Of a DNA stretch of 64,000 nt, positions 21,976 to 24,103 are shown piece by piece (position 1 is the stretch's first letter; every line of letters starts with the position of its first letter). Source of the DNA: Phycisphaerales bacterium (GTDB taxonomy: Bacteria > Planctomycetota > Phycisphaerae > Phycisphaerales > UBA1924); assembly GCA_029260455.1 (NCBI GenBank), contig JAJDDF010000011.1, forward strand, positions 127,130 to 191,129. The letters are read 5' to 3'. Both the position numbers and the translations under genes were made by a program. Below the pieces are notes generated by a model. The model saw only the letters and a program-made list of their open reading frames with translations, searched no databases and was not told the DNA's origin.

Positions 21976-22047
21976 GCACTTAGGCAATGGGATACAAGCC
22001 CCAAGCGCAAGCGCGGGGGTACGAGCGAAGTAGAAGAAGAACGAGTG

Positions 22048-22080
22048 GCGGGCGGGACGCCCACCCCACCAAGACAGAGA
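22048..22080 (+). promoter_or_regulatory. Conserved 33-nt leader element (copy 1) upstream of groES
   Basis: GCGGGCGGGACGCCCACCCCACCAAGACAGAGA; contains GGGCG-gga-CGCCC hairpin; 32/33 identical to copy 2 at 22413..22445. Confidence 0.4.
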
Positions 22081-22109
22081 AGTCAAGGAACGAAATAGGA
22101 GCAACGAAC

Positions 22110-22400
22110 ATGGCAATCAAGCCGACAGAAGATCGAGTGGTGGTGAAGCCCAACGAGCAGGAGACGATGACAGCAAGTGGGCTGTACTTGCCGGAGACGA
22201 GCAAGGAACGTCCGATGGTTGGCAAGGTTGTCGCAGTTGGGCCGGGCAAGCGTCTTGACAATGGCACGACGGTGAAGCCTTCGGTGAAGAAGGGCGACAG
22301 CGTGGTGTTTGGCAAGTACGCCGGCGCGGAAGTTGAGATCAAAGGCAATGAGCATTTGATTTTGCGCGAGACAGAGTTGTTGGGGATTTTGGAGAAGTAA
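22110..22400 (+). CDS. groES: Co-chaperonin GroES
   Basis: 96 aa starting [14 protein letters not shown]...; AGGAG SD; the listed ORF begins upstream at 21987, but the family-consistent start is 22110. Confidence 0.9.
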
Positions 22401-22412
22401 GACACGAAGATT

Positions 22413-22445
22413 GCGGGCGAGACGCCCACCCCACCAAGACAGAGA
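22413..22445 (+). promoter_or_regulatory. Conserved 33-nt leader element (copy 2) between groES and groEL2
   Basis: GCGGGCGAGACGCCCACCCCACCAAGACAGAGA; see copy 1. Confidence 0.4.
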
Positions 22446-22489
22446 TCAAGGCAGAACAAGAACAAAGCAAGCAAGCGGAGCGACGAATT

Positions 22490-24103
<1,614 letters not shown>

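Follow-up and report, generated by a model that had tools for sequence, protein, structure and literature searches.

Paired hairpins beside groES and groEL2 in a Phycisphaerales bacterium are probable GTAG/GTGG-tagged REP elements

The window analysed here is a 64-kb stretch of DNA from an uncultured Phycisphaerales bacterium (Planctomycetota), a placement that its GroES and GroEL2 sequences support. It carries a 33-nt element twice, once ahead of the chaperone gene groES and once in the spacer between groES and groEL2. These two elements are very probably head-to-tail copies of a repetitive extragenic palindrome (REP) from the superfamily tagged by a terminal GTAG or GTGG tetranucleotide, and closest to the GTAG-19 elements of Opitutus terrae. 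They belong to a family of hairpins that is constrained in its fold, dispersed in other genomes, and present or absent at equivalent sites in close relatives.

The element, GCGGGCG(G/A)GACGCCCACCCCACCAAGACAGAGA, occupies positions 22048-22080 (copy 1) and 22413-22445 (copy 2) of the + strand. The two copies are identical at 32 of 33 positions, the sole difference being a loop base, and the 33-mer has no match in 100 dinucleotide-preserving shuffles even with three mismatches allowed, bearing out the duplication described in a first-pass annotation of this DNA. Copy 1 lies in the intergenic region between the open reading frame (ORF) ORF180 and groES (22110-22400); it starts 72 nt past the ORF180 stop codon and 62 nt upstream of the groES ATG, as originally reported, and ends 29 nt upstream of that ATG. 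Copy 2 starts 12 nt past the groES stop codon, and groEL2 (22490-24103) begins 44 nt past its end; the spacer that contains it is indeed the one first named, with a measured length of 89 nt rather than 90 nt. The genes around both copies, with groES between them, are all on the + strand and form a co-directional chaperone cluster, in which Pfam identifies groEL1 (19345-21123), groES (Cpn10), groEL2 (Cpn60), dnaJ (24469-25641) and grpE (25666-26358). Pattern searches and a covariance model, R1, run without filters, found no third copy of the 33-mer in the 64 kb, including the regions upstream of groEL1 and dnaJ, from which the annotation had said it was absent. Model R1 gave 50.6 bits for copy 1, 41.2 bits for copy 2 and 10.6 bits for the next best site. 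Logan assembly L051 contains an identical stretch.

Each copy is built from three parts: a G+C-rich stem of 7-8 bp closed by an RGA triloop, a CCAC tag that abuts the stem, and a CAAG segment. The hairpin of copy 1 (22048-22064, + strand) comprises the stem strand GCGGGCG at 22048-22054, the loop GGA at 22055-22057 and the stem strand CGCCCAC at 22058-22064; in copy 2 (22413-22429, + strand) the same strands lie at 22413-22419 and 22423-22429, with the loop AGA at 22420-22422. The GGGCG-loop-CGCCC hairpin noted in the first pass is therefore present in both, and lengthens to seven pairs (GCGGGCG/CGCCCAC) with one C.A mismatch; in copy 1, G22047 and C22065 form an eighth pair. The predicted energy of the hairpins is about -8.5 to -14 kcal/mol, and no U-tract is associated with them. 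The tags, at 22066-22069 and 22431-22434, read CCAC on the + strand and GTGG, a variant of the REP tetranucleotide, on the - strand. The opposite strand of each copy thus reads GTGG followed by the palindrome, and the first 22-26 nt fit the architecture of a REP. The REP core extends over 22048-22073 in copy 1 and 22413-22438 in copy 2. Its CAAG part is common to the window copies and their closest counterparts elsewhere, whereas the next 7-13 nt (ACAGAGA, TCAAGG) are common to the window pair only. ACAGAGA completes the 33-mer in both copies. TCAAGG, which lengthens the local duplicate past the REP core, had been placed after both copies; it follows copy 2 directly (22446-22451, + strand), but follows copy 1 only past two extra bases (22083-22088, + strand).

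The REP literature defines two superfamilies by their terminal tetranucleotide (Di Nocera, De Gregorio & Rocco 2013, BMC Genomics 14:522; PMC3733652). Tagged REPs are described there as short (20-40 bp) stem-loops with stems of 6-13 bp and loops mostly of 2-3 nt; those of the GTAG superfamily form sub-families with complementary stem changes and G-T pairs, occur as singletons, as dimers (head-head, tail-tail, rarely head-tail) or as clusters in which flanking DNA is repeated too, and are mostly found where neighbouring ORFs are unidirectional or convergent, near the stop codon of the upstream ORF (PMC3733652). The tag is degenerate in some families, with GTGG in most elements of the O. terrae family named GTAG-20, and the superfamily is found in the Planctomycetes-Verrucomicrobia-Chlamydiae (PVC) superphylum, in O. 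terrae, Rhodopirellula baltica and Planctomyces (PMC3733652). The window copies correspond to this description in size, with a stem of seven pairs (eight with G22047-C22065) and a 3-nt loop; in tag, with the GTGG variant at one stem end of both; and in location, between unidirectional ORFs and, for copy 2, 12 nt past the upstream stop codon. Sub-families with compensatory stem changes are also seen, with such changes in four of the seven pairs and four stem variants in a single contig, L069. Many dispersed copies are seen for the family in other genomes, the source genome itself being sampled over 64 kb, with two copies at one locus.

The likeness to a particular family rests on a consensus that was reconstructed from published peptides rather than read from a genome. 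The peptides listed for intragenic O. terrae GTAG-19 elements (GTGVPPV, TGGTPVP, HGRDARAT, RAGRPCH, WHGRPAR and VARASRP; Additional file 3 of PMC3733652) are exactly the six reading frames of the 24-mer CACGGGCGGGACGCCCGTGCCACC. The inner stem, loop and tag of the window copies are identical to this reconstructed GTAG-19 consensus, which the copies match at 19/24 and 18/24 positions; a copy from another Phycisphaerales locus, L004, matches at 21/24. When viral-classed contigs were scanned with the O. terrae-derived pattern ACGGGCGRGACGCCCGTSCCAC, 15 matches were retrieved in 13 stretches, inverted dimers among them. A second covariance model, R2, was built only from these 15 sequences, with no window-derived input. 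Applied to the 64 kb, it ranked copy 1 first (26.5 bits, E 7.6e-6) and copy 2 second (19.1 bits, E 1.4e-3), with the next site at 10.7 bits, and we take this result as placing both copies among REPs of the tagged kind.

The family is constrained at the level of the hairpin. Among 43 model hits, 97.5% of the stem cells form standard pairs, compared with 20-43% after a shift of the 3' partner by 1-3 columns, and four of the seven stem pairs show compensatory changes on both sides. At the loop-closing pair, for example, 23 sequences have G-C, 11 have U-A and five have A-U. GU cells also occur in these stems, and the observed covariation score was reached by none of 500 shuffles. The invariant parts of the family are GGC/GCC of the stem, GA of the loop, and the CCAC directly past the stem, whose columns are invariant in all 43 family hits and likewise in alignments A2, A4 and A7. 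Our first structure-anchored pattern search demanded a perfectly paired inner stem, so that the covariation in alignment A2 is partly built in. This circularity was countered with alignment A4, which is made of model hits, with the outer pairs, with model R2, and with the independent set A7, in which the eighth pair alternates between C-G and G-C.

Copies of the family are found well away from chaperone genes. A metagenome scan for GGGCGNNNCGCCCACCCCACCAAG gave three hits; two of these, in contigs L052 and L053, match the core exactly over 24-27 nt in unrelated surroundings and have precisely the loops of the two window copies, AGA and GGA. Each is intergenic with no chaperone gene nearby, and each diverges from the window copies immediately past CCCACCAAG. 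The hit in L052 has an IS110 transposase ~1.8 kb off and a second family copy 1 kb away, giving two copies in 5 kb, and the single copy in L053 adjoins an IS630-like helix-turn-helix protein and a sigma-54 activator. Among plasmids, the 37-mer gave only chance-level hits by blastn (E = 5).

A structure-anchored search of fetched loci showed that other Phycisphaerales share the architecture (g)ACGGGCN-RGA-N'GCCCGT-CCCAC. In contig L012 (JALWOY010000175), seven copies lie in 6.8 kb: a single one ahead of groEL1, a tandem run of four ahead of groES, and a pair between groEL2 and dnaJ of which one is inverted. There are three copies in L030 (CBFGUD010000004) and one in L004 (JAJDDK010000004), 45 nt ahead of groEL1. 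In L056, three tandem copies lie between convergent non-chaperone genes (14590-14728), and a + strand ORF through them reads ...GGTGVPPAG..., resembling the intragenic REPs of O. terrae. These tandem copies extend, as PREGGPGVPPAGSREGGTGVPPAGPQHGGTGVPPV, the C-terminal end of an ORF for a zinc-ribbon membrane protein; the REP-encoded peptides are the same as those known from the intragenic O. terrae elements. Inverted dimers, 34-82 nt apart, are present in L066 and L074. With model R1, nine copies were found within 12.6 kb of L069 (1-12580 of IMGVR_UViG_3300020005_000015), a contig classed as viral, with four different stem variants side by side. All nine are on one strand, and six of them sit inside a longer repeat unit of ~60 nt, AGAACGCAGAGAGGGATGACAGGCTGGAAGCCTGTCCCACTCTGG...; the contig suggests either a bacterial (PVC) fragment or a REP-laden prophage.

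Close relatives differ in whether they carry the element. The nearest genome, L001, has GroES and GroEL2 that are 91% and 92% identical to those of the window, the next relatives being at 82-83% GroEL2 identity, and it lacks the element both in its groES leader and in its groES-groEL2 spacer. Flanking sequence aligns between the two, GAAGGCACTGGGGAYTAGGCA upstream and GCGGAGCGACGAA..ATGGCAGCC downstream; the L001 groES leader is ~75 nt shorter, and its groES-groEL2 spacer carries a different repeat. The chaperone spacers of L055, L056 and L057 hold no copy either. With the outgroups lacking the window copies, parsimony would place their gain in the window's own lineage, after its split from L001. 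A related TCAAG is present in the REP-less spacer of L001, so the TCAAGG part of the local duplicate is probably older spacer sequence. The second comparison concerns L030, whose groES-groEL2 spacer holds two REPs within an insertion of ~115 nt; L059 and L031 (GrpE 94% identical) lack this insertion. No REP copy was found in the 16 kb of L059, which came, with L060 and L061, from a GrpE homologue search aimed at extending the REP-rich L030 and L012 contigs; only a close, REP-less relative came back. The window against L001, and L030 against L059 and L031, are two independent comparisons between close relatives in which presence and absence of the element alternate.

The position of the copies before two chaperone genes invites explanations in terms of heat-shock control, and the first-pass annotation had offered a lineage-specific heat-shock operator and an RNA thermometer or processing signal alongside a small repeat element. 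Only the last of these three candidates is upheld. An operator would be the duplex GGGCG-N3-CGCCC, bound by a repressor or activator dimer before groES and groEL2 in place of the controlling inverted repeat of chaperone expression (CIRCE) and its repressor HrcA. It would fit with the location of both copies ahead of chaperone genes, with family members in the groEL1, groES, groEL2 and dnaJ leaders or spacers of L004, L012 and L030, and with the lack of CIRCE itself: the pattern TTAGCACTC-N9-GAGTGCTAA has no match in the window with up to three mismatches, in agreement with the earlier statement that the element is not CIRCE and that none exists in the cluster. An operator for the chaperone genes is nevertheless hard to reconcile with empty sites at both positions in the closest relative, with its absence also from L055, L056, L057 and L059, and with the lack of a copy upstream of groEL1 or dnaJ-grpE in the window. 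The identical core stands beside unrelated genes elsewhere, copy number and orientation are highly variable (four tandem copies in one leader, inverted copies in other places), and copy 2 is intra-operonic, 12 nt past a stop codon. Furthermore, the compensatory stem changes indicate that what is constrained is a folded single strand rather than a base-specific site in the duplex. The annotation had itself named dispersal at unrelated loci, and absence from the groESL leaders of relatives, as observations that would refute a regulatory role, and both are made here: the family stands beside transposase-like and sigma-54 activator genes in L052/L053 and also occurs in L056 and L069, and it is missing from the leaders of L001, L055, L056 and L057. 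We regard an operator as extremely unlikely. A dedicated RNA element of the chaperone operon, whose hairpin and C-rich tail would control groES/groEL2 translation or cleavage with temperature as a thermometer, processing site or stabiliser, draws support from the sense orientation of both copies in leaders that are probably transcribed, there being no promoter-like site between ORF180 and groES, and from the same orientation in 11 of the 13 chaperone-operon copies of the window, L004, L012 and L030. G.U pairs in the stems would also fit, as would the general proposal that REPs work as RNA hairpins. Yet both Shine-Dalgarno sequences are single-stranded in the predicted folds, AGGAG (22098-22102) in the minimum-free-energy and centroid folds and GGAG (22477-22480) in the centroid fold. 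The folding energies of the two leaders show no extra stability over shuffled sequence (z = -1.25 and 0.13), and an Rfam scan of the whole window at the gathering threshold gave no match. The element is not conserved in close relatives and recurs in non-chaperone and antisense contexts, and an all-G+C stem of 5-7 bp with the predicted energy given above would not be expected to melt between 30 and 42 C. A dedicated RNA element is accordingly very unlikely, and a heat-sensing or heat-shock-specific signal in these hairpins is not supported.

A further alternative is that the pair reflects a purely local event without function, in which ~40 nt of the leader were duplicated or gene-converted and no repeat family was involved. 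ACAGAGA and TCAAGG are shared past the family core, the 32/33 identity indicates a recent event, and the 64 kb hold no other copy. Local duplication would, however, explain the pair and not the origin of its sequence; exact matches to the core, loops included, occur in unrelated contigs, and model R2, built without the window, recognises both copies. As a complete account we find it very improbable. Several points do weigh against the identification of the copies as tagged REPs. Only two are present in 64 kb, both at one locus, which gives no sign of a high copy number in this genome, and further long stretches of intergenic DNA in the window, among them the spacers of the three flagellin genes, contain no copy. 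Head-to-tail pairs are rare in most REP families (PMC3733652). The 7-13 nt shared past the family core indicate that purely local duplication contributed. No transposase or REP-associated tyrosine transposase (RAYT) was found among the window ORFs scanned against Pfam, and the O. terrae consensus to which the copies were compared was rebuilt from peptides. Lastly, in the groES-centred loci most insertion sites are chaperone-operon spacers (window, L004, L012, L030) with only L056 outside, a placement that could point beyond neutral insertion.

Other candidate signals were considered and set aside. A thermometer of the ROSE, fourU or similar type was rejected, as the predicted folds do not sequester the Shine-Dalgarno sequence. 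The 33-mer does not match the HspR-associated inverted repeat (HAIR), CTTGAGT-N7-ACTCAAG. The window does contain one perfect 14/14 match to the HspR consensus, at 23414-23434, inside groEL2, where it encodes the conserved peptide LESIELK; L009, L025, L031 and L059 keep the peptide but vary at synonymous positions, so we reject the site as an operator and consider it a coding coincidence. A CsrA-type site, suggested by the GGA loop of copy 1, was dropped in view of the AGA loop of copy 2 and the RGA loop of the family. A tRNA-like ...CCACCA end was dropped likewise, since the tail varies past CCAC (CCACG, CCACT, CCACC) and the hairpin lacks T-arm geometry. A scan of 18.9-24.6 kb for sigma-70-type promoters gave no + strand site near the element or between ORF180 and groES; on that strand the scan gave a single promoter-like site, at 19147-19176 ahead of groEL1, and overall it gave as many sites as expected by chance. 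No intrinsic terminator was found on the + strand at the element, the only hit being on the - strand with a weak, T-poor tail.

If the copies are tagged REPs, their history may be outlined as follows. The elements would have been acquired, in the leader of groES and in the spacer between groES and groEL2, within the window's lineage after the L001 split. One copy may have given rise to the other, or both may derive from a master copy with the ACAGAGA flank. Local copying or a common master is favoured by the sharing of ACAGAGA and TCAAGG within the window pair, when L052 and L053 diverge after the core. Spread of the family may have involved an HUH transposase of the RAYT (TnpA-REP) type that recognises the folded single strand and its tag (PMC3733652, PMC8266576). 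With no promoter-like site between ORF180 and groES, both copies are probably part of a single groEL1-ORF103-ORF180-groES-groEL2 message, in which they would fold as short RNA hairpins that lack a U-tract. At most, these might act as generic barriers to 3'-exonucleases or as processing boundaries, slightly shifting the relative stability of the groES and groEL2 segments.

A stronger proposal is that, in Phycisphaerales, REPs of this family are preferentially inserted or retained in groEL1-groES-groEL2-dnaJ-grpE spacers, and have perhaps been co-opted there as a modular RNA hairpin that sets cistron stability or processing. In the groES-centred loci, eight insertion sites in four genomes (window, L004, L012, L030) fall in the chaperone cluster and one, in L056, outside it, with the predominance of sense copies noted above (11/13), a count that is biased because these loci were fetched through groES and because L012 and L030 contain no non-chaperone control DNA. 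Chaperone spacers make up ~0.9 kb of the ~6.5 kb of intergenic DNA in the window by a crude gene call. The placement of both copies within them is weakly unusual, with a chance of ~0.02 if the copies were independent, which they are not. We think this proposal unlikely.

The groES-groEL2 spacer of Phycisphaerales is also an insertion hot spot for small ORF cassettes. It holds a gene for a 23S_rRNA_IVP four-helix bundle (PF05635) in L009, L025, L057 and L058, and a PDDEXK_3 'GxxExxY' gene (PF13366) in L004, to which an ORF in L005 appears closely similar in sequence. In L057 (arrays at 9545-9575 and 9950-9980) and L004, the cassettes lie between inverted arrays built of tandem heptamers, whose types are TAGGCAC, CGCTAGT or CACAGAG/GCGCAGAG; in L056 (9830-9990), inverted arrays occur with no ORF between them. 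Heptamer arrays lie downstream of groES in L009, L017, L020, L025, L004 and L005 as well, and solo arrays are kept in the window (21961-21991, GGCACTGGGGATTAGGCACTTAGGCAATGGG, right after ORF180) and in L001 (~3925-3960 and ~4295-4325). By analogy with rRNA intervening sequences, long inverted arrays could form an RNase III-type stem.

Between groEL1 and groES, the window has two + strand ORFs that lack a Pfam match: ORF103 (21125-21436, 103 aa) and ORF180 (21433-21975, 180 aa), which overlap. Gene calls on the identical Logan contig agree for both. At the equivalent place, L055, L058 and L059 have Pfam-less ORFs of 217, 164 and 91 aa, respectively, which suggests that the chaperone operon has lineage-specific members. 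In groEL1, tandem 9- and 21-nt repeats (GGCATGGGCGG...) near the 3' end (21019-21110) encode the usual Gly-Gly-Met C-terminal tail of GroEL; groEL2 has no such tail. Elsewhere in the window (7130-12382), flgI, flgN, flgK and a flagellin-like flgL candidate precede a tandem set of three flagellin paralogues of 522, 510 and 518 aa, whose spacers, 219-377 nt long, are REP-less.

A duplicated hairpin before two chaperone genes resembles a new heat-shock control element, yet this one is very probably a selfish or structural repeat of the REP type, and annotating it as an operator or a thermometer is unwarranted. The known hosts of the GTGG-tagged REP family, which are Opitutus, Rhodopirellula and Planctomyces, are thereby joined by uncultured Phycisphaerales, whose chaperone-operon spacers repeatedly take up small insertions.

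Comparison with known systems sets the element apart from heat-shock operators and aligns it with tagged REPs. The CIRCE/HrcA operator is likewise an inverted repeat in groES/groEL leaders, sometimes in two copies, and also acts at the RNA level; its arms, however, follow a 9-N9-9 arrangement and have another sequence, where the window element has arms of 5-8 bp about a 3-nt loop. Unlike the CIRCE of groESL and dnaK operons, the window element is neither conserved in relatives nor confined to chaperone genes. The REPs, bacterial interspersed mosaic elements (BIMEs) and REPINs (REP doublets forming hairpins) of E. coli and Pseudomonas are, like the window copies, short extragenic palindromes that carry a conserved tetranucleotide on one side; they too fall into sub-families that differ by compensatory changes in the stem, are found singly, as dimers or in clusters, and have been proposed to influence mRNA stability as RNA hairpins within transcripts (PMC8266576; PMC3733652). 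They are accompanied by RAYT genes, whereas the Pfam scan of the window shows none and mobilisation there would have to be inferred; the window element also lacks the bulged, imperfect palindrome of the E. coli REP, and its locus lacks the inverted pair of a REPIN. The O. terrae GTAG-19 elements differ from the window copies in their outer two stem pairs (AC...GT, compared with GC...AC in the window, which leaves the C.A mismatch), in the base beside the tag (G, compared with C), and in being high-copy and often intragenic or dimeric where the window has just two head-to-tail copies in 64 kb. They nevertheless share with the window copies the GTGG tag abutting the stem (CCAC as written in the window), the inner stem GGGCG/CGCCC, the 3-nt loop (GGA as written) and the overall size, as well as a host in the PVC superphylum and a site between unidirectional genes near the upstream stop codon.

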